NCBI GenBank assembly: GCA_965219565.1
Contig: OZ244780.1
Coordinates: forward strand, 1,006,287 to 1,070,286
DNA length: 64,000 nt
Reading direction: 5' to 3'
DNA from: Dehalococcoidia bacterium
GTDB taxonomy: Bacteria > Chloroflexota > Dehalococcoidia > Lucifugimonadales > JAGWBF01
In this document: positions 7,052 through 43,731 of the stretch, one piece after another
How positions within the stretch are numbered: position 1 is the stretch's first letter
How the letters are laid out: every line of letters starts with the position of its first letter
The notes under the pieces: model-generated
What the model was told of the DNA's origin: nothing
Seen by the model: only the letters and a program-made list of their open reading frames with translations
The model's database searches: none
Made by a program: the position numbers and the translations under genes

Positions 7052-7666
7052 CTACCGTATGGGCGAGAATGACGCCGGGTTGAGTATCTTGTTCTCCTGG
7101 CTCAGCCAATACTGGCCGGTGGGCGGAGGCCACTTGGGGTCTGACCTCGCCTCGGCGCGGACCCTGTCGCGCTCGGCCAGGCTAGGGTAAGCCCAGACGT
7201 GGTACCAGCGGTTCAGCCCGCCGATTTCGGTGTAACCGGTGAACACGTTGGGCGAGTACTTTTCCCGGGCCGGAAGGGAGTCTTTCCAGCCTTCTATGAC
7301 GTGGGGCAAAGCGCCCGGCTGGAAGGTGTAGATGCGTATCTCGAACACGGGGCCTATCTCCGCGGGCTCCAGGGACTTGGCGAAGGGCGCAGGCTCTATG
7401 ATGACGTTCTCCATGTTCAGGATCAGGTCCTGGGTCTTCGGGGGCCAGTTGGGGCTCTTGGCCGCCTCCGCCCGTATAGCGGTCCTGGCGTTCAGGTCTT
7501 CGTAGGGCCAGATGTGGACGACCTGGTTCAGCGGGCCGATGGAGGTGTGCCAGAAGGCCGCCATGGGGGACAGGTGGGTCCTGTGGGGCAGGGCCTCTTC
7601 CACCCGCCTCTCGAACTCTTCGATGGAACCGGGCCTCATGTCGTAGGTGCGCAGCTCGTAAATCAT
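7052..7666 (-). CDS. NIPSNAP family protein (tandem paralogue)
   Basis: Same 204-aa architecture as 6403..7017, and collinear with it (MIYELRTYDMRPG...WHTSIGPLNQVVHIWPYEDLNAR). Confidence 0.8.
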   Translation of the reverse strand: MIYELRTYDMRPGSIEEFERRVEEALPHRTHLSPMAAFWHTSIGPLNQVVHIWPYEDLNARTAIRAEAAKSPNWPPKTQDLILNMENVIIEPAPFAKSLEPAEIGPVFEIRIYTFQPGALPHVIEGWKDSLPAREKYSPNVFTGYTEIGGLNRWYHVWAYPSLAERDRVRAEARSDPKWPPPTGQYWLSQENKILNPASFSPIR

Positions 7667-7866
7667 ATAACCTCCAGATGTCTTGAAATGGCGCCGAAAG
7701 CAAAGAGGGCCAAGAGTCGTGTTATTCTACTTCAGCCCACTAGAGGCGGCAACCGCCCGCGGCGGTCGGTTCATTCCCGTTCGCCCTGAGTGTGTCGAAG
7801 GGCGGTTCTGTAGGCGACCATTGGGACGAGACACAGTGAAGCTCTATGAGACGATTGATGGACGGC

Positions 7867-8619
7867 ATGGGACGGCTGACGGGTAAGACGGCGCTTGTTA
7901 CGGGAGGGGCCAGGGGAATGGGCGCCGCCCAAGCCCGGCTGCTGGCCCATGAAGGCGCGACGGTGGTCATCGCCGACATCCTGGACGATGAAGGCCTTGG
8001 TCAGGTCGGCTTGATCGAGAAGAGTGGAGGCCGCGCAACATATCGTCATCTCGACGTATCGGAGGAGTCCGACTGGATTGAGGCCGTCGACAGCGCCGTG
8101 GAGATGATGGGTGGACTCCACGTACTGGTGAACAACGCGGGCATAGGCCAACGGCTTTCCATCGAGGAGACAAGCGAGGAACTTTGGGACCGGGTCATGG
8201 CTGTCAACGCTCGAGGTCCGTTTCTGGGCGTCAAACATTCCATCCCCCACATGAGGAGGGCTGGCGGCGGCTCAGTCATCAACATCTCTTCCATAGCCGG
8301 AATAGTCGCCGGAGGCACGTCAGCCGTATACCACGCCTCCAAGGCGGCTGTCCGCCTGTTCACCAAAGCTGCGGCGTTGCAGCTTGCGCCCTATGGCATC
8401 AGGGTCAACTCCATTCACCCGGGAGACGTAATAACGCCTATGACGGCCGCTTACTTTGCAGACCCCGCCAACGTAGAGGACCGGATACGGAAGACTCCGC
8501 TGGGCCGTATAGGGACCCCGGAGGACGTGGCCCAGGCCGTACTGTTCCTGGCTTCCGACGAATCCTCATACATGACCGGCGCAGAGCTTGTCCTCGACGG
8601 AGGCCGCACGGCCCAGTAA
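7867..8619 (+). CDS. SDR family oxidoreductase
   Basis: TGxxxGxG motif ([12 protein letters not shown]), NNAG, and the S...YxxxK catalytic motif (YHASKAAV). Start chosen at MGRLTGK by analogy with the paralogue at 50592. Confidence 0.85.
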
Positions 8620-8801
8620 ACGTGGGGTCGGGGCGCCGCCGGTGGATGTCTGGATGGAACGATGCAGGGATTGACAAGTGCTTCCGTTTCAACTGATTAT
8701 CCGGTTAATTGCCCCGACCACATGCCAATCTGCCTAATGGAGGAGTAGGCATGGAGCCAGGGGAAAGCGAGTCCCCACGGAGGACGGAAGGCAGGTTCCA
8801 G

Positions 8802-9827
8802 ATGAAAGCCATTGTTTATGAGTCGGGCGGGGTGGAGACGTTGGGCATAAGCCAGGTCCCGGACCCCGTGGCCGGGCCTGGAGAGGTCGTGGTGCGGGTG
8901 TGGGCGTGCGCCATGAACCACGCCGACGTATGGGGGCACAAGTCCGGGGGGCCGCGTTTCGGAGGTCCCAGAATCCTGGGACGGGACGTGGCTGGAGTCA
9001 TCGAGGAAGTGGGGGAGGGCGTGGCCTGCTGGGCCAAGGGCGACCCCGTAGTGGTGGCGCCGGGCGTAAGCTGCAACGTCTGCTTCCATTGCCAGCATGG
9101 GCAGCACTCCGACTGCCCCGAATACGGGATGCTGGGCGCCAAGGTTGACGGCGGCTACGCAGAGCTGATGAATGTCTCGGCCATGAACCTTTACCCCAAG
9201 CCCGACAACCTCAGCTATGAAGAGGCGGCGTCGATTCCCCTGGTCTTCATAACGGCCTGGCGGTGCCTGGTGGAAAAGGCCCGCGTCCAGCCTGGGGAGT
9301 GGGTGCTGGTGAACGCAGCCGGAAGCGGCGTCGGCATAGCCGCCATCCAGATAGCCCAGATGCTGGGCGCACGTGTGGTGACTACGGCCAGCAGCCAGGA
9401 GAAGCGGGAAAGAGGACTCGAGCTTGGGGCCGCTGCCGCCGTGGACTACACGCAGGAGGGCTGGCCTGACATGGTTGTGAGGGCCACCGGCGGAGGCGCG
9501 CACGTAGCGGTGGACAGTGTGGGCGGCCAGACCCTCATGGACACCTTCCGTGCCATGGCCTACGCCGGACGGGTCATCAACTGCGGGTTCACAGCCGGAA
9601 CGGGCATGGAGTTCGACTGGGGCGAGTTTCGGGGAAAGCGTTTGTCCCTGCTGATGTCCTTCATGGGTAGCAACAGCTACCTGCATGACATTATGCGGCT
9701 GGTCAAGGACGGGCGGCTCAAGCCGGTGGTCCACAAGGTCTTCCCCTTCAGCCAGGTCCAGGAAGCCCACAGCGCCATGCTGAACAGGGAGAATTTCGGG
9801 AAGATTGTCCTGACCTGGGAGGAGTGA
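8802..9827 (+). CDS. zinc-type alcohol dehydrogenase / quinone oxidoreductase (MDR superfamily)
   Basis: MKAIVYESGG start, GRDVAGVIEEVGEGV and the nucleotide-binding GEWVLVNAAGSGVGIAAIQIA. Confidence 0.85.
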   Translation: MKAIVYESGGVETLGISQVPDPVAGPGEVVVRVWACAMNHADVWGHKSGGPRFGGPRILGRDVAGVIEEVGEGVACWAKGDPVVVAPGVSCNVCFHCQHGQHSDCPEYGMLGAKVDGGYAELMNVSAMNLYPKPDNLSYEEAASIPLVFITAWRCLVEKARVQPGEWVLVNAAGSGVGIAAIQIAQMLGARVVTTASSQEKRERGLELGAAAAVDYTQEGWPDMVVRATGGGAHVAVDSVGGQTLMDTFRAMAYAGRVINCGFTAGTGMEFDWGEFRGKRLSLLMSFMGSNSYLHDIMRLVKDGRLKPVVHKVFPFSQVQEAHSAMLNRENFGKIVLTWEE

Positions 9828-9847
9828 ACGACCCTCCCCCATCCCAG

Positions 9848-9898
9848 CCTTCCCCCGCCGGGGGAAGGAGTAATACTCCCTCTCCCCACGGGAGAGGG
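9848..9898. repeat. pair of GC-rich REP-like hairpins in the adh/chlorite-dismutase-family intergenic region
   Basis: CCTTCCCCC-gcc-GGGGGAAGG (9848-9868) and CCCTCTCC-ccacg-GGAGAGGG (9878-9898). No T-run follows either. Confidence 0.5.
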
Positions 9899-9921
9899 TT
9901 GGGGTGAGGGCAAACCCTACG

Positions 9922-9930
9922 TGGTACAAT
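9922..9930 (+). promoter_or_regulatory. possible extended -10 promoter element (TGgTACAAT)
   Basis: TGGTACAAT lies 28 nt upstream of ATG 9958, which has a GGGAGG RBS. Confidence 0.3.
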
Positions 9931-9957
9931 ATGCCCGACTATCTACGGGAGGGCGCC

Positions 9958-10653
9958 ATGGCCCAGGAATTCAAGGGCCGTTTCATCAAGTATTCCTTCT
10001 ACAAGGCCGACCCCAGTTGGAAGCTGCTTCCCGACGACGAGCGTGACCGCGGGAAGCGAGAGTTCGCCGCCGTCGTGGACGAGTTCTCCTCCAGGATGGG
10101 CATCGCCAGCTACAGCCTGCTGGGCACCCGGGGCGACGTGGACTTCCTGCTCTGGAAGGTGAGCGAGTCCATGGACCTGCTGGACAGTCTGGCAGTCCAA
10201 TTGAACCGTACCGGACTGGGCAGGCGTCTACAAATGCCCCATTCCTACTTGGCCATGACCAAGCGTTCCCCATACATCGACAGCCACGCCCATGAAGGCC
10301 AGGATGGCTCAGGCGAGGGGTTCAGGGCCATAGGCAGGGACTACCTTTTCGTCTACCCCTTCGTCAAGACCCATGACTGGTACCAGCTTCCCAAAGACGA
10401 ACGGCAGCGCATGATGAACGAGCACTTCCAGGTGGGTCACAAGTATCCGTCGGTGAAGATAAGCACCTCTTATTCATTCGGGTTCGACGACCAGGAGTTT
10501 GTGCTCGGTTTCGAGACGGCCAACCCCGTGGACTTCCTGGACCTGGTGATGGAACTGCGGGAGTCCGAGGCCAGGCCCTATACGGAGAGGGACACCCCCA
10601 TATTCACCTGCATCCACAAGCCCCTGAGGGAATGCCTTGACGGCCTGGGGTGA
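9958..10653 (+). CDS. chlorite dismutase family protein (HemQ-like coproheme decarboxylase family)
   Basis: FIKYSFYK...YLFVYPFVKTHDWYQLPKDERQRMMNEHFQVGHKYPSVKISTSYSFGFDDQEFVLGFE is typical of the Cld/HemQ family. Confidence 0.8.
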   Translation: MAQEFKGRFIKYSFYKADPSWKLLPDDERDRGKREFAAVVDEFSSRMGIASYSLLGTRGDVDFLLWKVSESMDLLDSLAVQLNRTGLGRRLQMPHSYLAMTKRSPYIDSHAHEGQDGSGEGFRAIGRDYLFVYPFVKTHDWYQLPKDERQRMMNEHFQVGHKYPSVKISTSYSFGFDDQEFVLGFETANPVDFLDLVMELRESEARPYTERDTPIFTCIHKPLRECLDGLG

Positions 10654-10792
10654 ACGGCGGCCCGCCCCTGGAGAAAGCTGAATATGACGCCGTCAGCCCA
10701 GGCAAAAAGCGTGGCAGCCCAGGGTGAGCATCCCAATATTGTTGCCGTATAATCAATAGTGTAAGCTAGCTCAAATCCCAGGGGAGGAATGA

Positions 10793-11974
10793 ATGGCTCT
10801 GAAAGTATATCCGGCCAGCCAGGAAGAGACACTGGAAGCGCTGCTGGCGGTCGTCGAAGAGGTGCGTCCCGTCCTTGAGGCCCATGCCGAGGAAGGGGAA
10901 GCCATCGCCACTCTCCCTAAGGCTTCGGTGGAGGCCCTGTACGACGCTGGACTGTTTGCCATAAAGCTGCCCAGGGTGTTGGGTGGAGCGGAAGCCGACC
11001 CCGTGGTCCAAATGGAGATAATTGAGGCCATCACCCGGATAGAGCCGTCAGCGGGCTGGTGTGTAATGATTGGCAGCTCCAGCGCGGGGCAGCCGGGAGC
11101 ATATCTTAACGACGAAGCCTTGGAGATAGTTTTCCCCGGAGGGCGTCCTCCGCGCGTGGCCTCATCCCTGGCTCAGGGAGGCTCCGCCGAGCCTGTGGAC
11201 GGCGGCTATAGGGTTACCGGGAAATGGTCCTTTGCCAGTGGTATCCGTCACTCCAACTGGGTGCGTGGCGGCGCCCTGGTGCCGGGAGTCGAAAGCGAGT
11301 CCGAACGCCACATAGTCTGCATGATGCCCACGGAGCAGGTAAAGGTGCACGACAACTGGGACGTGATGGGTCTAAGAGGCACGGGAAGCTGCGACTTCTC
11401 AGTGAAAGACCTATTCGTCCCTGAGGATTTCACCTGGGACGTGTGGAAACCCACGATATACCGGGGCGGTGCCCTCTACCGGCTTGGCCGCCCTGGATTC
11501 GTGATTAACGAGCACTCCGCCTTTGCCATAGGGTGTGCGCGCAAGGCGATGGACATTGTCATGGACAAGGCGGCGATACGGCAGCGGGGCTACTATAGCC
11601 GGCCTCCTCTTTCCGAGCGGGGCGCCTTCCAGAGGGACCTGGGAGAGTGTGACCTGAAGCTTCGGGCCGCCAAGGCCCTGGCGAAAGAGGTCATGGACGA
11701 GGGCTGGCAAGTCGCCTGCCAGGGTGAGACGCCCGGGCCCGAGCTCCAGTCCGCCATGCGGGCAACGTCCAGCTACGTCACCCAGGTGTCCGTAGAGGTG
11801 ACGGAGATGCTGTTCAGGTACTCTGGCGGCGAGGCCATCTTCAACTCCAGCCAGCTTCAGAGATGCCTGCGGGACGTATACGCCGGAGGCCAGCACCTCA
11901 TGGTCAGTGAAAGGGCCATGGAGAACCACGGGCGGTTCCTGCTGGGCCATCCCGACGCCAATCCCATGGGGTAG
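10793..11974 (+). CDS. acyl-CoA dehydrogenase family protein
   Basis: 393 aa with ACAD-like N, middle and C domains (WSFASGIRHSNW, GLRGTGSCDF). GGAGG RBS. Confidence 0.8.
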   Translation: MALKVYPASQEETLEALLAVVEEVRPVLEAHAEEGEAIATLPKASVEALYDAGLFAIKLPRVLGGAEADPVVQMEIIEAITRIEPSAGWCVMIGSSSAGQPGAYLNDEALEIVFPGGRPPRVASSLAQGGSAEPVDGGYRVTGKWSFASGIRHSNWVRGGALVPGVESESERHIVCMMPTEQVKVHDNWDVMGLRGTGSCDFSVKDLFVPEDFTWDVWKPTIYRGGALYRLGRPGFVINEHSAFAIGCARKAMDIVMDKAAIRQRGYYSRPPLSERGAFQRDLGECDLKLRAAKALAKEVMDEGWQVACQGETPGPELQSAMRATSSYVTQVSVEVTEMLFRYSGGEAIFNSSQLQRCLRDVYAGGQHLMVSERAMENHGRFLLGHPDANPMG

Positions 11975-11986
11975 ACCGGGGGGCCG

Positions 11987-12184
11987 ATGTCCGTCCCCGT
12001 TCATTACAGCGAGAGACTCCGGGATGGTTGCCGGAGGATTTCTGTCGTGGCGCGGTCAATTCAGATTGCTCAAGGCTTGCTGCCAGGGTTTTGGACAGCG
12101 ATAATTGTACTATTGTTCGTATGCCGAGTAGGTCTGCCGCTTGTTGCCGACATAAGTAACTTTTGCCTAGCCTGGGAGATGTAG
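11987..12184 (+). CDS. possible small hydrophobic protein (65 aa) ending directly before the parA-like start
   Basis: ORF stop TAG 12182-12184 abuts ATG 12185. Has a hydrophobic stretch FWTAIIVLLFVC. The C-terminal LPLVADISNFC matches LPSFSDISNFC in the 177-aa protein even though different Ser codon families are used. There is no convincing RBS. Confidence 0.25.
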   Translation: MSVPVHYSERLRDGCRRISVVARSIQIAQGLLPGFWTAIIVLLFVCRVGLPLVADISNFCLAWEM

Positions 12185-13042
12185 ATGGCTCCAAAGGGTA
12201 ACCCTGTCGCTATTTCGGTAATCAACCTGAAAGGCGGAGTCGGCAAAACTACGATTGCCGCCTTGCTTGGTAGGTATGCTGCCCAGAGTCTGAATCTTAA
12301 GGTTCTAGTTATTGATTTAGATCCACAAGCCAACCTATCTCAGGCGTTGATGGGTGAAGTCAGCTATAGGCAGTTCTTGAACGACAAGTCGCCTTCGATT
12401 GTGGAGGTGTTTGCCGGATATCAACCACCGACAGTCGGGCAGACCGCAACGAGTGGGTTGGACAGACAGAACGTGGTACGGCATCCCAGACCGAATTTGA
12501 AAATCATCCCTTCAAGGTTCGACTTCTCCAACAACCTTGTCAATGCGGCGACACCGGACCCGCAACGGTTGGCACGGCTCATAGCCGAATATTTCCAAGA
12601 TGAGGACCTTATCCTCATCGACTGTGCTCCTACTGAGTCAATATTCACCATAGCTGCCTACCATGCCTCTCGCTACATTCTTGTTCCAGTGAGGCCTGAA
12701 TTCTTCGCAACCATTGGGTTTCCGCTCTTAAATGATTCTCTTCAAGCCTTCCGAGCCAATAATCGGGGGCATCAGATTGATGTAATCGGTGTCGTGGTCA
12801 ACGATGCAACCGATGGTGGAGGAAACGATGGAGGGCCAGAGAAGAAGCGGTCGATTAATGAAATCAAGGAGGAATCGGATAAGAATAGATGGCATGTATT
12901 TAACAACCACTTAGGTTATTCTAGAGGTTTTCCCAAGATGATGCGGGGTGATTATATGTACCTTGGCAATGCTCCGTACGAATTTGCGCGATTCGCGAAA
13001 GAACTATTCAGCAGACCGGAACTGAGCGGACTTCAGTCTTGA
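12185..13042 (+). CDS. ParA/Soj/MinD-superfamily ATPase (orphan; no ParB recognisable nearby)
   Basis: Deviant Walker A NLKGGVGKTT, VLVIDLDPQANLSQ and Walker B LILIDCAPT. GGGAG RBS. Composition is visibly more A/T-rich than the flanking genes. Confidence 0.85.
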   Translation: MAPKGNPVAISVINLKGGVGKTTIAALLGRYAAQSLNLKVLVIDLDPQANLSQALMGEVSYRQFLNDKSPSIVEVFAGYQPPTVGQTATSGLDRQNVVRHPRPNLKIIPSRFDFSNNLVNAATPDPQRLARLIAEYFQDEDLILIDCAPTESIFTIAAYHASRYILVPVRPEFFATIGFPLLNDSLQAFRANNRGHQIDVIGVVVNDATDGGGNDGGPEKKRSINEIKEESDKNRWHVFNNHLGYSRGFPKMMRGDYMYLGNAPYEFARFAKELFSRPELSGLQS

Positions 13043-13067
13043 GCTAGTGGCAAGGGGGTGACAACTG

Positions 13068-13601
13068 ATGACTCAGGCTAACCTAAAAGACACATTGCGC
13101 TCAATGGTCACAGAGTACGGAATTGAGTGCGTTCAGGAGTCTCTGCGGGAGATCGAGTTAGCGGAATCTCACATTGTGAGCTCTAGTCAGAACACCAGGA
13201 CCCGAAGTCGTCGCCATGTCACGGAAGCCGGTAAAAGGAGTCCTAGAATCACGGCTTTACAATACGTCGAGAAGATGGCATTGCCAGCAGAGAAAATGCC
13301 ATCTGTGGTAGAGCTTGCCGGAAGATTCGAGGAAAAGTCGTTTCTCCCCAGTTTCAGCGACATCTCCAATTTCTGTCAAATCTATGGAATCGACGAGCCT
13401 GCGTCCAAGTCGCGTTCCAGTGCTCTACCGAGGCTGTTCAAGTTCATAGCCTCAATGGAAGCTGACGACATTGACAGGATTCTTAATGAAGGCCAGTTCT
13501 CTGGTCCATCAAGGCTAGGGCCTATAGCAGACGCAATCCGTCGCAACGGCAGGGCCGGGACCCCTGTTAGTTCTTACGGCACCACTGTCCAAGGCTCGTA
13601 G
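13068..13601 (+). CDS. hypothetical protein (177 aa) with a basic, low-complexity segment; candidate ParA partner
   Basis: Lies 25 nt downstream of the parA-like gene on the same strand, with GGGGG upstream. Contains SSSQNTRTRSRRHVTEAGKRSPR. I recognise no domain. Confidence 0.6.
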   Translation: MTQANLKDTLRSMVTEYGIECVQESLREIELAESHIVSSSQNTRTRSRRHVTEAGKRSPRITALQYVEKMALPAEKMPSVVELAGRFEEKSFLPSFSDISNFCQIYGIDEPASKSRSSALPRLFKFIASMEADDIDRILNEGQFSGPSRLGPIADAIRRNGRAGTPVSSYGTTVQGS

Positions 13602-13643
13602 TCTAATTTCCTCTCCCAAGACCGTCGACCGGCTGGGGTCCGC

Positions 13644-15920
13644 TTAGCCGCCACGCAGCAGGTTCAGTGCCGCGCCGGCCTTGAACCATTCGATTTGGGT
13701 GGGGTTCATCGTCTGGTGCAGGTTAAGGTCCTCAGTCGTGCCGTCGGCGTGATGCAGTGTGGCCTTGACCGGCTTGCCGGGGGCCAGGTCCGTCAGTCCC
13801 GTCAGGCTGATGCGGTCGGCTTCCTGCACCTTGTCGTAGTCGGCGGCGTCCTCGAAGGTGAGAGGCAGCAGCCCTTGCTTCTTCAGGTTGGTCTCATGGA
13901 TGCGGGCGAAGGAGCGGGTGATGATGGCTGCGGCTCCCAGCAGCCTGGGAGACATCGCAGCGTGTTCGCGGCTGCTTCCCTCGCCGTAGTTGTAGTCTCC
14001 AACCGCCACCCAGCGCTTGCTCTGGGCCTTGTAGTGGCGGGCAATCTGGGGTATGGGCTGGCCTGTTTCTCCCGTAAGCTGGTTCAGGCCCTCTCCCGAC
14101 TTGTCAGTGTAGGAGTTGGTGGCCCCCAGGAACATGTTGTCGCTCAGGTTGTCCAGGTGTCCGCGGAACCTGAGCCACGGCCCGGCTGGGGAGATATGGT
14201 CGGTGGTGCATTTCCCCTTGGCCTTCAGCAGGATGGGCAGTTCCAGGAAGTCCTCCCCGTCCCAGGGTGCGAAGGGTTCCAGCGCCTGCAGACGGTCGCT
14301 GGCCGGGTCTACGCTCACCTCCACCGAGTCCCCGTCGTCCTCGGGTTCTACGTACACGTCCGTCGCACGAACGAAGCCGCCAGCAGGAATCTCAGGAGCG
14401 GCCTTGGGGGGTTCCAGCTTGAAGGTCTCGCCCGAGGGAGCGGTTACTTCATCGGTAAGGGGATTGAACGAGAGGCGGCCAGCCAGGGAGTAGGCGATGA
14501 CTATCTCGGGGCTCGTGATGAAGGCGGCGGTATCGGCCCTGCCGTCGTTTCGGCGGGGGAAGTTGCGGTTGAAAGACGTGACGATGGTGTTGGGCTGGCC
14601 GTCGGCCACATCGTCCCGCTTCCACTGGCCGATGCAGGGCCCGCAGGCGTTGGCCAGGACCGTGGCGCCGATGTCTCCCAGTGACTGCATTTGGCCGTCC
14701 CGCTCGATGGTGGCCCGGATCTGCTCGGAGCCCGGAGTCACCAGCAGGGGAATGTTCACGGAAAATCCCCTCGCCTTGGCCTGCTCGGCCACGTCGGCGG
14801 CCCGAGACATGTCCTCGTACGACGAGTTGGTGCAGCTTCCGATAAGGCAGTCGGATATGTGGTCCACGTAGCCTTTTTCCTGCACCTCTTTGGCCATTTG
14901 GGATATAGGCCGCGCCAGGTCCGGGGTGTGGGGGCCCACCACCTGGGGTTCCAGGCTGGACAGGTCTATTTCCACCACCCTTTGATAATAGCTCTCCGGG
15001 TTCTGCACCGCTTCATCGTCGGCTGCCAGCAGGCTGCGGTTGGCTTCCGCCAGGTCGGCCAAAGCTCCCCGTTGGGTGGCCCTGAGATAGGTGGCCATGC
15101 GGCTGTCAAAGGGGAACACGGAGCAGGTGGCGCCCAACTCAGCCCCCATGTTGGTGATGGTCGCCTTGCCGGTGCAGCTTATGGACTCGGCTCCTGGGCC
15201 GAAGTATTCGATGATGGCGTTGGTGCCCCCGGAGACCGTGAGGACTCCGGCCAGGTACAGGATGATGTCTTTGGGCGCCGTCCATCCGCTCAACTCCCCG
15301 GTCAGGCGCACTCCGACGGAGGTGGGGTACTTCAGTTCCCAGGGAAGCCCAGCCATCACGTCGGCTCCGTCGGCTCCTCCCACTCCAATGGCGAGCATCC
15401 CCAGGCCGCCGGCGTTGGGGGTGTGGGAGTCGGTGCCTATCATTAACCCGCCCGGGAAGGCGTAGTTTTCGAGAACGACCTGGTGGATAATTCCCGCTCC
15501 GGGTTTCCAGAAACCCATGCCGTATTTGCGGGCGGAGGACTCCAGGAAGTGGTAGACCTCGTTGTTCTCGTTGAGGGCGTCTTGCGTGTCGGCTCTTCCC
15601 TCGACCCGCGCCTGGATCAGGTGGTCGCAATGTATGGTCGTGGGCACGGCGACCCTGTTCCTCCCTGCCTGCATGAACTGGAGCACCGCCATCTGGCCGG
15701 TGACGTCCTGGTGAGCGACCCGGTCAGGCCGGAGCATAAGATAGCTGTCCCCTGCTGCCAATTCCTGGCTTTCGGGCTCGTCCAGATGGCCCAGGAGAAT
15801 CTTCTCGGCCAGATTGAGGGGCCTTCCCAGCTTCCGGCGAGCCACGGCCAGGTTGGCTTCAACCGTCTTATATGCCGCTTCGACGAATTCGGGAGTGGAG
15901 TCTATAACGTTGGTTGTCAT
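13644..15920 (-). CDS. aconitate hydratase (about 750-aa, mitochondrial-type architecture)
   Basis: Fe-S ligand motifs (HCDHLIQ, GSCTNSSYEDM, NACGPCIGQW) and a C-terminal swivel domain. Confidence 0.9.
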   Translation of the reverse strand: MTTNVIDSTPEFVEAAYKTVEANLAVARRKLGRPLNLAEKILLGHLDEPESQELAAGDSYLMLRPDRVAHQDVTGQMAVLQFMQAGRNRVAVPTTIHCDHLIQARVEGRADTQDALNENNEVYHFLESSARKYGMGFWKPGAGIIHQVVLENYAFPGGLMIGTDSHTPNAGGLGMLAIGVGGADGADVMAGLPWELKYPTSVGVRLTGELSGWTAPKDIILYLAGVLTVSGGTNAIIEYFGPGAESISCTGKATITNMGAELGATCSVFPFDSRMATYLRATQRGALADLAEANRSLLAADDEAVQNPESYYQRVVEIDLSSLEPQVVGPHTPDLARPISQMAKEVQEKGYVDHISDCLIGSCTNSSYEDMSRAADVAEQAKARGFSVNIPLLVTPGSEQIRATIERDGQMQSLGDIGATVLANACGPCIGQWKRDDVADGQPNTIVTSFNRNFPRRNDGRADTAAFITSPEIVIAYSLAGRLSFNPLTDEVTAPSGETFKLEPPKAAPEIPAGGFVRATDVYVEPEDDGDSVEVSVDPASDRLQALEPFAPWDGEDFLELPILLKAKGKCTTDHISPAGPWLRFRGHLDNLSDNMFLGATNSYTDKSGEGLNQLTGETGQPIPQIARHYKAQSKRWVAVGDYNYGEGSSREHAAMSPRLLGAAAIITRSFARIHETNLKKQGLLPLTFEDAADYDKVQEADRISLTGLTDLAPGKPVKATLHHADGTTEDLNLHQTMNPTQIEWFKAGAALNLLRGG

Positions 15921-15984: not shown

Positions 15985-16425
15985 CTACAGGACCAGTCCA
16001 TAGGTGCGTTTCTTGATGGCCAGGTTGACGAAGGTTTCGGTCCGCGTGATTCCTGATATGACGCCTATCTTGCCCCGGATGAAGTTGCCCAGCTGCTCTG
16101 TGGACTCGACTCCGACCCAGGCGAATATGTCCCACGCCCCCGTGGTAATGGCGACGTAGTGGGCCTCGTCCAATGCCGATATAGAGTCGGCCACCTCGTC
16201 GACCCGGCCTGGGGAAGTCTGCACTCCGATGAGGGCGGCAGTGGCGTAGCCCATCTCCTCCAGGTTCGGCACCGCTATGACTTTAACGACTTCGTCTTCC
16301 ATAAGACGCCGCAGCCGTCGTCTAACCGTGCCCTCGCTGACGCCCACGTCCCGGGCAATCTTGGCGTTGGAGGCGCGTCCGTCAGCCTGAAGGAGGTTGA
16401 TGATTCTGCCGTCCAGTTCATCCAT
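15985..16425 (-). CDS. Lrp/AsnC family transcriptional regulator
   Basis: MDELDGRIINLLQADGRASNAKIARDVGVSEGTVRRRL HTH followed by an RAM/ACT-like C-terminus. Lies directly upstream of aconitase on the same strand. Confidence 0.85.
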   Translation of the reverse strand: MDELDGRIINLLQADGRASNAKIARDVGVSEGTVRRRLRRLMEDEVVKVIAVPNLEEMGYATAALIGVQTSPGRVDEVADSISALDEAHYVAITTGAWDIFAWVGVESTEQLGNFIRGKIGVISGITRTETFVNLAIKKRTYGLVL

Positions 16426-16613
16426 AATCGTCGCTCCCGAATAGAGTATAGGGGTGACATGATAGAGTAGAGCAGTAATCAAGTCAATGGTTGCCTCTTT
16501 TCGGCGCTAACCGAGCGAAAACCATCGCTTTCATTCACGAATCAATTGTTCCTTGGCCTTGTTCATCGCCTTGCCGTCGGGCTGCGGTTCTTGTATATTT
16601 GAGAGCTAAGAAT

Positions 16614-16705
16614 GGAGGGATCGCATAGTGGCCTAGTGCGGGCGCCTGCTAAGCGCTTAGCCTGAGAAATCGGGCTCATGGGTTCGAATCCCATTCCCTC
16701 CGCCA
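16614..16705 (+). tRNA. tRNA-Ser (anticodon GCT)
   Basis: Acceptor GGAGGGA/TCCCTCC, anticodon loop CT-GCT-AA, long variable arm, GGTTCGAATCC T-arm and an encoded CCA. Confidence 0.9.
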
Positions 16706-42681: not shown

Positions 42682-42757
42682 GGGCGGTTAGCTCAGTGGT
42701 TAGAGCGCCTCGTTCACACCGAGGAGGTCAGAGGTTCAAATCCTCTATCGCCCACCA
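42682..42757 (+). tRNA. tRNA-Val (anticodon CAC)
   Basis: GGGCGGTTAGCTCAGTGGTTAGAGC D-arm, anticodon loop TT-CAC-AC, GGTTCAAATCC T-arm and an encoded CCA. Confidence 0.9.
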
Positions 42758-42788
42758 TTAATACCGGGGACATGCCCCTGTAGAACAA

Positions 42789-42875
42789 GCCGAGGTGGCG
42801 GAACGGCAGACGCGCTGCGTTCAGGGCGCAGTGCCCCTTGCGGGCGTGTGGGTTCAAATCCCACTCTCGGCACCA
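42789..42875 (+). tRNA. tRNA-Leu (anticodon CAG)
   Basis: Class II tRNA with a long variable arm, anticodon loop TT-CAG-GG, GGTTCAAATCC T-arm and an encoded CCA. Confidence 0.9.
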
Positions 42876-42890
42876 TCGACAAGTCGGCAC

Positions 42891-42967
42891 GCGCTTGTAG
42901 CTCAGTTGGATAGAGCGCATCCCTGCGGAGGATGAGGCCGTGGGTTCGAGTCCCGCCAAGCGCGCCA
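42891..42967 (+). tRNA. tRNA-Arg (anticodon reads GCG)
   Basis: Acceptor GCGCTTG/CAAGCGC, anticodon stem CATCC/GGATG with loop CT-GCG-GA, GGTTCGAGTCC T-arm and an encoded CCA. Confidence 0.8.
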
Positions 42968-42980
42968 TTCTCTGTCGCCG

Positions 42981-43280
42981 CTAGCCCAGGAAGATGTAGA
43001 CGTCTGCGTGTGGGAAGGCCACTTCCACCGCTCCCTTAAGCCGGTCCCTCACTAAACGTCTGTAGCCGTCCAAAGGCTGCTCGACGTCCAAGTGGGAGCA
43101 CCTCTGGCCCCTCTGCTCGTCGGGGCAGATGTGGCCTCCCGTGGGGCCGTCCCAGAACCCCACGCAATGCATCGGGAAGAAGAAGGTCTCGGTGACGTTG
43201 CGCAAGTCAGCAACGATCTCAGTGGCCCGAAAGCCGCTGTCAGTCGTCACTGAGACGACTACTCTAGCAAGTTCAGCCAC
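42981..43280 (-). CDS. hypothetical protein (99 aa, His/Cys-containing)
   Basis: ORF only; no recognisable domain. Sits between two tRNA loci. Confidence 0.4.
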   Translation of the reverse strand: MAELARVVVSVTTDSGFRATEIVADLRNVTETFFFPMHCVGFWDGPTGGHICPDEQRGQRCSHLDVEQPLDGYRRLVRDRLKGAVEVAFPHADVYIFLG

Positions 43281-43314
43281 GCTGTCTCACGCCCCCGTCG
43301 ACGGGACAGGCGGG

Positions 43315-43482
43315 TTAGCCGCCCCGGAATAGCTTGTTCCGCTCACCGTCTTGGCATTCTTTGTTGGTGCAGAACCAGAAGATGGTAGGCATTGGGGGCG
43401 TCCTGACGCCGTCCCTCTCTCTGCGCATGGGCTGTTTGCAAGTCGGGCAGACGCTTGAACCTTGAGCGCTTTCAGATGACAT
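43315..43482 (-). CDS. hypothetical small zinc-ribbon protein
   Basis: CPTCKQPM...FWFCTNKEC four-Cys arrangement. Start is uncertain (ATG 43482 or 43521). Confidence 0.4.
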   Translation of the reverse strand: MSSESAQGSSVCPTCKQPMRRERDGVRTPPMPTIFWFCTNKECQDGERNKLFRGG

Positions 43483-43635
43483 GGAATCTCCCGGGAGGTT
43501 ATACCTGGAATGTTCTACCATCCCAGCCTAGTGTGTTGCAAGTGTACAGTCGGCCCCGCGTCTCCAACTGGTACCGTCTCCGAGAACTTTGGACTCCACT
43601 CGAGGATTCGAAATAATTACCCCCTGAGATTACGG

Positions 43636-43641
43636 TATAAT
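43636..43641 (+). promoter_or_regulatory. possible -10 box (TATAAT) for tRNA-Val(TAC)
   Basis: Perfect TATAAT 14 nt upstream of the mature tRNA 5' end. No good -35 element seen. Confidence 0.3.
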
Positions 43642-43654
43642 ATATCGTCGCTCC

Positions 43655-43731
43655 GGGCGGTTAGCTCAGCCGGTTAGAGCGCCTGCTTTACACGCAGGAG
43701 GTCAGTGGTTCGAGTCCACTACCGCCCACCA
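43655..43731 (+). tRNA. tRNA-Val (anticodon TAC)
   Basis: GGGCGGTTAGCTCAGCCGGTTAGAGC, anticodon loop TT-TAC-AC, GGTTCGAGTCC T-arm and an encoded CCA. Confidence 0.9.

Follow-up and report, generated by a model that had tools for sequence, protein, structure and literature searches.

A mobile cassette of a ParA-type ATPase and a partner protein in a Dehalococcoidia genome, with a possible role in genetic conflict

The locus and its base composition

The 64,000-nt stretch of contig OZ244780.1 analysed here (positions 1,006,287 to 1,070,286, from a Dehalococcoidia bacterium; hereafter the window) carries a ~1.6-kb cassette of two plus-strand open reading frames (ORFs) between an acyl-CoA dehydrogenase-like gene and a convergent aconitase gene. 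The upstream ORF, which includes VINLKGGVGKTT, encodes a ParA/MinD-type ATPase (hereafter ParA) and is separated by 25 nt from the second, which includes SSSQNTRTRSRRHVTEAGKRSPR and encodes the partner protein. ParA/MinD ATPases are segregation and positioning motors whose specificity sits in the partner. The original prediction, made from the DNA letters and ORF translations, had proposed a ParA-type ATPase followed by a protein with a basic disordered stretch and no recognisable domain, and coordinates, Pfam, PHROG and the structural model agree with this description. By window position, the features of the locus are:

10793..11974, + strand: left flank, acyl-CoA dehydrogenase-like core gene (Acyl-CoA_dh_N/_2; ORF and Pfam)
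12017..12036, + strand: terminator-like hairpin with T-rich tail, just left of the drop in GC content (consensus scan only)
12077..12105, + strand: putative promoter-like element TTGCTG, 17-nt spacer, GATAAT, ~80 nt 5' of the ParA ATG
12174..12179, + strand: Shine-Dalgarno-like GGGAGA before the ParA ATG; GGAGA(T) is repeated at the same position across loci
12185..13042, + strand: ParA/MinD-type ATPase, 285 aa (Pfam, NCBIfam, PHROG, PDB profile, alignment A3)
12230..12253, + strand: deviant Walker A, KGGVGKTT, with signature lysine K16 (invariant in A3)
12605..12637, + strand: Walker B region LILIDCAPTES with D146 (D146, C147, P149, T150, E151 and S152 invariant in A3)
13053..13058, + strand: Shine-Dalgarno-like AGGGGG before the partner ATG, inside the 25-nt spacer
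13068..13601, + strand: partner protein, 177 aa, of a family in no database searched (homologue, profile and fold searches)
13074..13193, + strand: partner N-terminal helical hairpin, aa 3-42 (AlphaFold2 predicted local distance difference test score, pLDDT, 96-98)
13173..13250, + strand: partner basic disordered linker, aa 36-61 (low pLDDT), containing the stretch singled out in the original prediction
13251..13496, + strand: partner C-terminal five-helix domain, aa 62-143 (pLDDT at least 95; invariant F92 and R116, FLP motif)
13497..13556, + strand: partner C-terminal tail motif FSGPSRLGPIADAIRRNGR, aa 144-163 (pLDDT ~61-73)
13602..13643, no strand: right junction, 42 nt from the partner stop to the aconitase stop; similarity with relatives restarts at about the aconitase stop (alignment A6)
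13644..15920, - strand: right flank, core aconitase gene, convergent with the cassette (ORF and Pfam)

The cassette had been described as an A/T-richer islet between core genes, and this was borne out when windowed GC content and GC at third codon positions (GC3) were calculated. GC falls from 0.61-0.66 to 0.47-0.52 over ~12050-13550, the cassette having ~50% GC compared with 60% for the genome. Of all 64 one-kb bins in the window, that at 12001-13000 has the lowest GC (0.492), the remaining bins lying at 0.545-0.66, and GC3 values of 0.51 (ParA) and 0.56 (partner) compare with 0.75 and 0.80 in the two neighbour genes. In agreement with the original prediction, no ParB, replication, plasmid or phage genes were found within ~8 kb of the cassette. 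No transposon or attachment-site boundaries were evident at the window locus, where flanking direct or inverted repeats were chance-level short matches only. The hairpin at 12017..12036 probably closes the acyl-CoA dehydrogenase transcript. The pattern TTG[ACT][CAT]-N16-19-[ATG]A[TA]A[AT]T was present 70-108 nt 5' of ParA in 12 of 58 loci compared with 1-2% of controls, and the promoter-like element TTGyC-N17-GATAAT may move together with a subset of cassettes. A strict sigma-70 scan of the window locus called no promoter, the element at 12077..12105 included.

A distinct ParA subfamily

Profile searches of the ParA ORF returned Pfam AAA_31 (1.2e-27) and CbiA (5.5e-18), both past their cut-offs, together with PHROG 164, 'ParA-like partition protein' (4.7e-39). 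Consistent with placement in the ParA/MinD superfamily, KGGVGKTT (aa 16-23), DLDPQ (aa 44-48) and IDCAPT (aa 145-150) are all present. Across alignment A3, which comprises 29 ParA sequences at a mean column identity of 67%, Walker A with its signature lysine, DxDPQ and Walker B are invariant, and the subfamily is marked by a GGNDGGPEK insert and a C-terminal SRGFPKxMRGD motif. These data indicate a distinct, highly conserved and apparently catalytically intact ParA subfamily. The NCBIfam partition equivalogs were not reached (NF041546 ParA_partition, 68.7 bits against a cut-off of 180), scores for the RepA, SopA and PrgP models were far under their cut-offs, and the MinD equivalog minD_bact gave 29.5 bits where its cut-off is 212.9; neither MinC nor MinE is encoded beside the cassette. 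The nearest solved structures by sequence, the delta protein of pSM19035 (2oze, 2.5e-13) and Soj, are both distant.

A large, uncurated partner family

The partner had zero matches in Pfam, NCBIfam, PADLOC and PHROGs, as did nine distant homologues. A word-indexed search recovered 415 partner homologues, the best 120 of which were full length and 48-86% identical. None of the homologues had a Pfam domain or an informative name, source names being absent or just 'hypothetical protein' or 'chromosome partitioning protein'. When 1.84 billion cluster representatives were searched by profile, at least 631 partner clusters were recovered at E<=1e-3 and 371 at E<=1e-10, the size of the family being counted in clusters at 50% identity. 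The partner is thus evidently no orphan, its homologues forming a large, conserved and uncurated family.

Partner architecture is constant, with an N-terminal module of ~35 residues, a linker of ~26 residues, a C-terminal domain of ~80 residues and a tail. The linker, rich in R, K, S and P, is variable in sequence and steady in charge (median net +5, positive in 97% of 118 members). In the C-terminal domain, F92 and R116 are invariant and accompanied by the FLP motif. The tail FSGPSRLGPIADAIRRNGR is the best-conserved stretch of the family, with G146, P147, L150, P152, A156 and I157 at least 90% conserved in a partner alignment whose mean column identity is 25%, and distant homologues have analogous amphipathic, basic C-terminal ends. 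An AlphaFold model built from a 118-sequence alignment reached a mean pLDDT of 84.7, with a disordered linker and a tail modelled at lower confidence as a detached helix. The modelled hairpin (aa 3-42) may serve as a dimerisation module and the tail (aa 144-163) as a ParA-contact peptide.

Foldseek searches with this model gave no match at E<=0.001 (best E 4.9 in PDB and 0.23 in BFVD), nor did those with an earlier model (pLDDT 66.6), and a PDB sequence-profile search with the partner returned nothing under E=1 (best 1.1). Because profile and fold searches were empty, the partner is not considered a ParB, a ribbon-helix-helix (RHH) protein or a recognisable helix-turn-helix (HTH) protein. The original prediction would fall if the pair were an ordinary partition module, and profile, PDB, Foldseek and repeat scans recovered neither a ParB or centromere-binding family nor parS-like repeats. 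No repeat array was detected at 11700-13900, a scan that degenerate or distant sites could escape, and repeated 6-8-mers in the 180 nt 5' of ParA were not in excess of shuffles across 58 loci.

Several homologues depart from the common architecture. The N-terminal helical module of ~30 aa is tandemly duplicated in P0009, P0015, P0068, P0072 and P0117 (alignment A1). P0209 fuses ParA to the partner and has a degenerate Walker A (KGRVGET), P0144 is a partner joined to DUF2513, and P0210 joins the partner C-domain to a ~330-aa extension, in which an LLGAGAS motif is SIR2-like by eye only and which has no Pfam or PADLOC match.

Linkage, selection and decay of the pair

ParA and partner were adjacent and co-oriented in six of six inspected contexts. 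Recurrence of the pair in other genomes, on which the original prediction depended, was borne out both by partner-anchored genome loci, ~60 of 80 of which have an intact ParA 3-55 nt 5' of the partner, and by ParA-anchored loci. Even a partner at ~25% identity was preceded by a ParA of the same subfamily, 57% identical to that of the window. A ParA-anchored metagenome scan recovered ~31 full-length subfamily ParAs. Nearly all of them abut or overlap, on their 3' side, an ORF of 165-200 aa that shares the partner architecture; the partner hidden Markov model detected 18 of these ORFs, and most others were related by visible motif. As exceptions, three contigs stop at ParA, and L122 and L125 have no suitably sized ORF; partner-less ParA accounted for about 2 of 28 evaluable ParA-anchored loci. 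Two further ParA-anchored loci both had the partner, displaced in one by an IS1595 insertion.

Pairwise identities of ParA and partner correlate (r=0.66), with medians of 62% for ParA and 47% for the partner. The ratio of nonsynonymous to synonymous substitution (dN/dS) was 0.10-0.37 for both genes in most syntenic species pairs, with a single outlier of 0.67. Both genes are thus kept by purifying selection, and the partner, which had been taken for a fast-evolving protein, instead belongs to a large family under such selection. All-against-all clustering of ORFs around the cassette (~75 loci) yielded no third conserved gene. These data show that ParA and partner move and evolve as a unit and that the module needs no third conserved gene.

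Decay of the pair was asymmetric. Among the partner-anchored loci, ParA was absent from ~10 of 80 and frameshifted or internally deleted in ~13 of 80, the partner being mostly full length. Such asymmetry would fit ParA as the costly component, within the limits set by partner-anchored ascertainment and long-read frameshift errors.

At two loci, insertions separate ParA from the partner and leave both ORFs undamaged: a 2.8-kb insertion with an IS1595 transposase (L181:5001-9192) and one of ~1.25 kb (L044:3903-6486). Some genomes have two copies a few kb apart (OY282430.1, loci L054 and L090; CBDCDC010000002.1, loci L063 and L065; and L069), often one complete cassette and one with a truncated or missing ParA.

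Distribution and horizontal transfer

The cassette averages 9.6 GC points under its flanks and is more than 3 points under them in 61 of 63 loci. Hosts span ~10 phyla, including Latescibacterota, Dehalococcoidia, Nitrospirales, Acidobacteriota, Binatia, Alpha- and Gammaproteobacteria, Acidimicrobiia and Spirochaetia. At 16 of 55 loci the best-matching cassette came from another phylum, as with Nitrospirales and Latescibacterota at 73% and 69% identity, which indicates exchange of the cassette between phyla. Its chromosomal positions are diverse. The ParA subfamily and partner were found in none of 50,697 phage records, in no IMG/VR contig and in 1 of 72,556 plasmid records. Collectively, these features mark the cassette as foreign, mobile DNA, yet not as plasmid or phage DNA.

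Some host taxa are named as sponge symbionts (Poriferisodalaceae, Aldehydirespiratoraceae and Oxydemutator), and the close clade of the cassette thus seems to be passed around within sponge microbiomes. This clade occurs in metagenome-assembled genomes, several of them from sponge-named taxa, and more distant members of both families occur in other metagenome contigs; calling the cassette strictly 'sponge-specific' was therefore rejected.

The insertion site as a variable hotspot

Using the flanking acyl-CoA dehydrogenase, relatives were located in L179 (flanking gene 89% identical) and L180 (93% identical). Synteny is kept in L179, where an alcohol dehydrogenase (ADH), a chlorite dismutase-like gene and the acyl-CoA dehydrogenase lie on one side and aconitase and AsnC on the other, and where 7183-10742, equivalent to the window interval 11975-13643, has an unknown 349-aa gene, a HAD hydrolase and a LiaF-like gene instead of the cassette. 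In L180 (2111-4696), a candidate phage-defence helicase (DUF4011/AAA_11; 846 aa or longer) begins 49 nt past the acyl-CoA dehydrogenase stop and matches the PADLOC models PDC-S37 (5e-121) and Hhe (6e-56). DNA similarity to both L179 and L180 breaks off directly behind the acyl-CoA dehydrogenase stop codon (alignment A5) and picks up again around the aconitase stop codon (A6). To judge from these comparisons, the window site is a variable accessory-gene hotspot, bounded by the stop codons of two core genes that converge on it. In a strain-level variant of the window locus (L001:5367-7440), a DDE_Tnp_1 insertion sequence (IS) element lies inside ParA and the partner is 100% identical.

Upstream of this site, L001 has another IS between its ADH_zinc and chlorite-dismutase-like genes, and L179 (2837-3622) has a DpnI-like methyl-directed restriction enzyme (PADLOC mREase_II, 1.6e-57) between adh_short and ADH_zinc. 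No mREase_II-type gene is listed among the called genes of L001, which covers ~540 nt upstream of ADH_zinc only.

Neighbouring genes and defence systems

Several islands place the cassette near genes of known or candidate anti-phage systems. On the pSymA island of S. meliloti T073, an integrase, VapBC, the ParA-partner pair, SIR2 (4e-201) and HerA (3e-291) follow one another in that order. At a Latescibacterota hotspot the cassette is constant, with a BrxH/DrmD-like helicase beside it in L009 and Avs4 (1.5e-231) in L014, and in L004 a type IIG restriction-modification gene lies 3' of the partner. In L040 (6001-9683) and L076 (6174-12468), a ParA-less partner overlaps the start codon of a type III Mod gene, followed in L076 by Res, which suggests translational coupling of the solo partner to a restriction-modification operon. 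Several further genes among the 141 nearest neighbours match PADLOC models. The cassette thus appears to recur beside, or to alternate with, such systems; its association with defence genes as a whole is suggestive and not established.

The T073 island (L097:2445-9942; 265158-277598) is strain-specific and without annotation in the gene table of the plasmid collection. Its integrase is tyrosine-recombinase-like and its toxin-antitoxin genes form a VapBC-like pair.

Comparison with known ParA-type and two-gene systems

The cassette resembles type Ib partition systems (ParA/ParF-ParG; delta-omega of pSM19035) in having a small Walker-type ParA that lacks an N-terminal HTH and is followed in the operon by a small partner, and delta is the closest solved structure by sequence. 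In contrast to type Ib partners, the 177-aa partner has an all-helical model of unmatched fold and is not RHH, and the cassette lacks centromere repeats, is near-absent from plasmids and phages and is chromosomal in variable hotspots. By analogy with type Ib systems, the partner's flexible basic segment could act on the ATPase. With Soj/ParA-Spo0J/ParB-parS it shares the ATPase superfamily and motifs, Soj being among the top PDB matches; unlike that system, it has no ParB (neither a ParB N-terminal nor an HTH domain), has no parS and is not origin-linked. McdA/McdB and other A/D ATPase-adaptor systems likewise pair a ParA-type ATPase with a small partner that has a basic intrinsically disordered region (IDR) and a helical or oligomerising part. 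Unlike McdAB, there is no cargo locus near the cassette, ParA retains the classical signature lysine (KGGVGKT), the module is mobile and patchy with islet-like composition, and the partner sequence is unrelated to any curated family.

Two-gene NTPase anti-phage systems (PARIS AriA/AriB, SIR2-HerA) are similar in forming a compact, low-GC ATPase-partner operon that is patchy and transferred, likewise in hotspots adjoining or alternating with defence genes. They differ in that the ATPase here is of the ParA/MinD class, which PADLOC lists as the core of no system, and in that an effector domain is not detectable. Collectively, the cassette does not appear to belong to ParABS, MinDE, McdAB or any PADLOC-listed system. 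Neither the partner nor the pair was found in a curated family, a solved structure or a paper, and we regard the pair as a new variant on the ParA-plus-adaptor theme.

Interpretation and alternatives

We tentatively favour a self-contained, horizontally transferred two-gene module with an accessory, conflict-related role, and give this statement as a whole, mechanism included, slightly less than an even chance. A conflict role is pointed to because of low GC, cross-phylum transfer, location in hotspots, alternation with or adjacency to defence genes, and frequent disruption. The conflict would most likely be with invading mobile DNA, as defence or as competition, and the role is probably neither chromosome or plasmid segregation nor the positioning of a locally encoded organelle. 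Mechanistically, ParA would form an ATP-sandwich dimer and bind to a surface, for which nucleoid DNA is the likeliest candidate. The partner would dimerise via its N-terminal helical hairpin and touch ParA via the invariant C-terminal peptide and/or the basic linker, through which it could control the ATPase cycle. The target, probably nucleic acid, might be engaged by the novel helical domain of the partner or by its +5 basic linker. A more specific proposal, which we consider doubtful, is that the cassette represents an immune system against phages or plasmids, the first to use a ParA/MinD-class ATPase, with ParA as a DNA-bound ATP switch and the novel-fold partner sensing or tethering invading DNA or protein, and that it is exchanged among phyla. 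The literature searched yielded no account of this pair, nor of any defence system based on ParA.

Several observations weigh against a conflict-related role. No effector domain (nuclease, NADase, pore or similar) is recognisable in ParA or partner, and in PADLOC-DB 2.0 ParA gives one weak, P-loop-limited match (PDC-M28B, 9.3e-5, aa 10-48). Most of the 141 nearest neighbours, which spread over 130 Pfam families, are housekeeping genes, defence association being a minority pattern. Adjacency within hotspots is weak evidence, since hotspots also gather toxin-antitoxin (TA) modules, mobile-element genes and unrelated cargo. One position of the cassette is stable across several Latescibacterota species, which fits a housekeeping-like accessory role too. 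The proposal of a defence-type islet in the original prediction accordingly stands in part: the variable hotspot and recurrent defence neighbours lend it circumstantial support, and the mostly housekeeping neighbours leave the association suggestive only.

Cargo positioning in the manner of McdAB or ParAB, with ParA patterned on the nucleoid and the partner acting as an adaptor to a universal cargo, or itself being a self-assembling or condensate-forming cargo, is in our estimation unlikely. Its appeal lies in a classical ParA with signature lysine and motifs intact, in the resemblance of the partner's hairpin, conserved-charge basic IDR and terminal peptide to known ParA partners, and in purifying selection on both genes together with stability of the cassette in some lineages. 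However, no conserved cargo gene was found near the cassette in ~75 loci, distribution is patchy with cross-phylum transfer, nearly all hosts show the low-GC islet signature, and ParA has repeatedly been lost or has decayed with the partner kept. The module is also dispensable at strain level, as seen from the IS in the L001 ParA and the absence of the cassette from L179 and L180. The original prediction had raised positioning next to a cargo locus, a suggestion that found no support: there was no conserved neighbour, no microcompartment family among the listed top 25 neighbour Pfam families, and no storage-granule genes were seen. A TA-like addiction module is a further alternative, in which free ParA would be harmful (e.g., by nucleoid coating or a replication or division block) and the partner would neutralise it by driving ATP hydrolysis. 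ParA is missing or damaged in ~23 of 80 partner-anchored loci, where the solo partner is mostly full length; the IS in L001 disrupts ParA and not the partner; ParA without partner is rare (about 2 of 28 evaluable loci, with the partner present in 2 of 2 further loci); and the operon is compact and often overlapping, with VapBC and other TA genes adjoining in some islands. Nevertheless, the asymmetry is confounded by the partner-anchored survey, to which long-read frameshift errors may add, the toxin-first order and the 285- and 177-aa sizes are atypical of type II TA, and ParA is the slower-evolving of the two. We regard addiction as quite unlikely.

A vestigial type Ib-like partition module, comprising ParA and a small centromere-binding protein left by an integrated plasmid, integrative and conjugative element or prophage, is largely refuted and highly improbable. 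The best solved relatives of ParA, pSM19035 delta and Soj, are partition ATPases, PHROG 164 carries a partition name, the order of ParA and then small partner is that of par operons, and one copy resides on a megaplasmid island with an integrase. This reading was nevertheless rejected given that the pair is effectively absent from the phage, IMG/VR and plasmid collections, with its single plasmid record. Profile and fold searches detected no ParB, RHH or HTH signature in the partner, short repeats 5' of ParA show no excess across 58 loci, no repeat array was detected in the window, most loci lack adjacent integrase, replication or transfer genes, and purifying selection in syntenic species pairs speaks against decay.

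The large, conserved, uncurated partner family and its tie to a distinct ParA clade would define a new ParA system, and a role in genetic conflict, if true, would add a function to those known for the ParA fold. At 1.5 kb and with its own promoter-like element, the cassette is compact and directly testable, and it may help to trace gene flow between the uncultured bacterial lineages in which it occurs.

Other features of the window

A second, smaller low-GC stretch (0.50-0.54) lies at window positions 16250-16702, between an AsnC-type regulator and a MiaB-like gene, and contains an 89-nt tRNA at 16614-16702. Four further tRNA genes are clustered on the + strand at 42682-43728.

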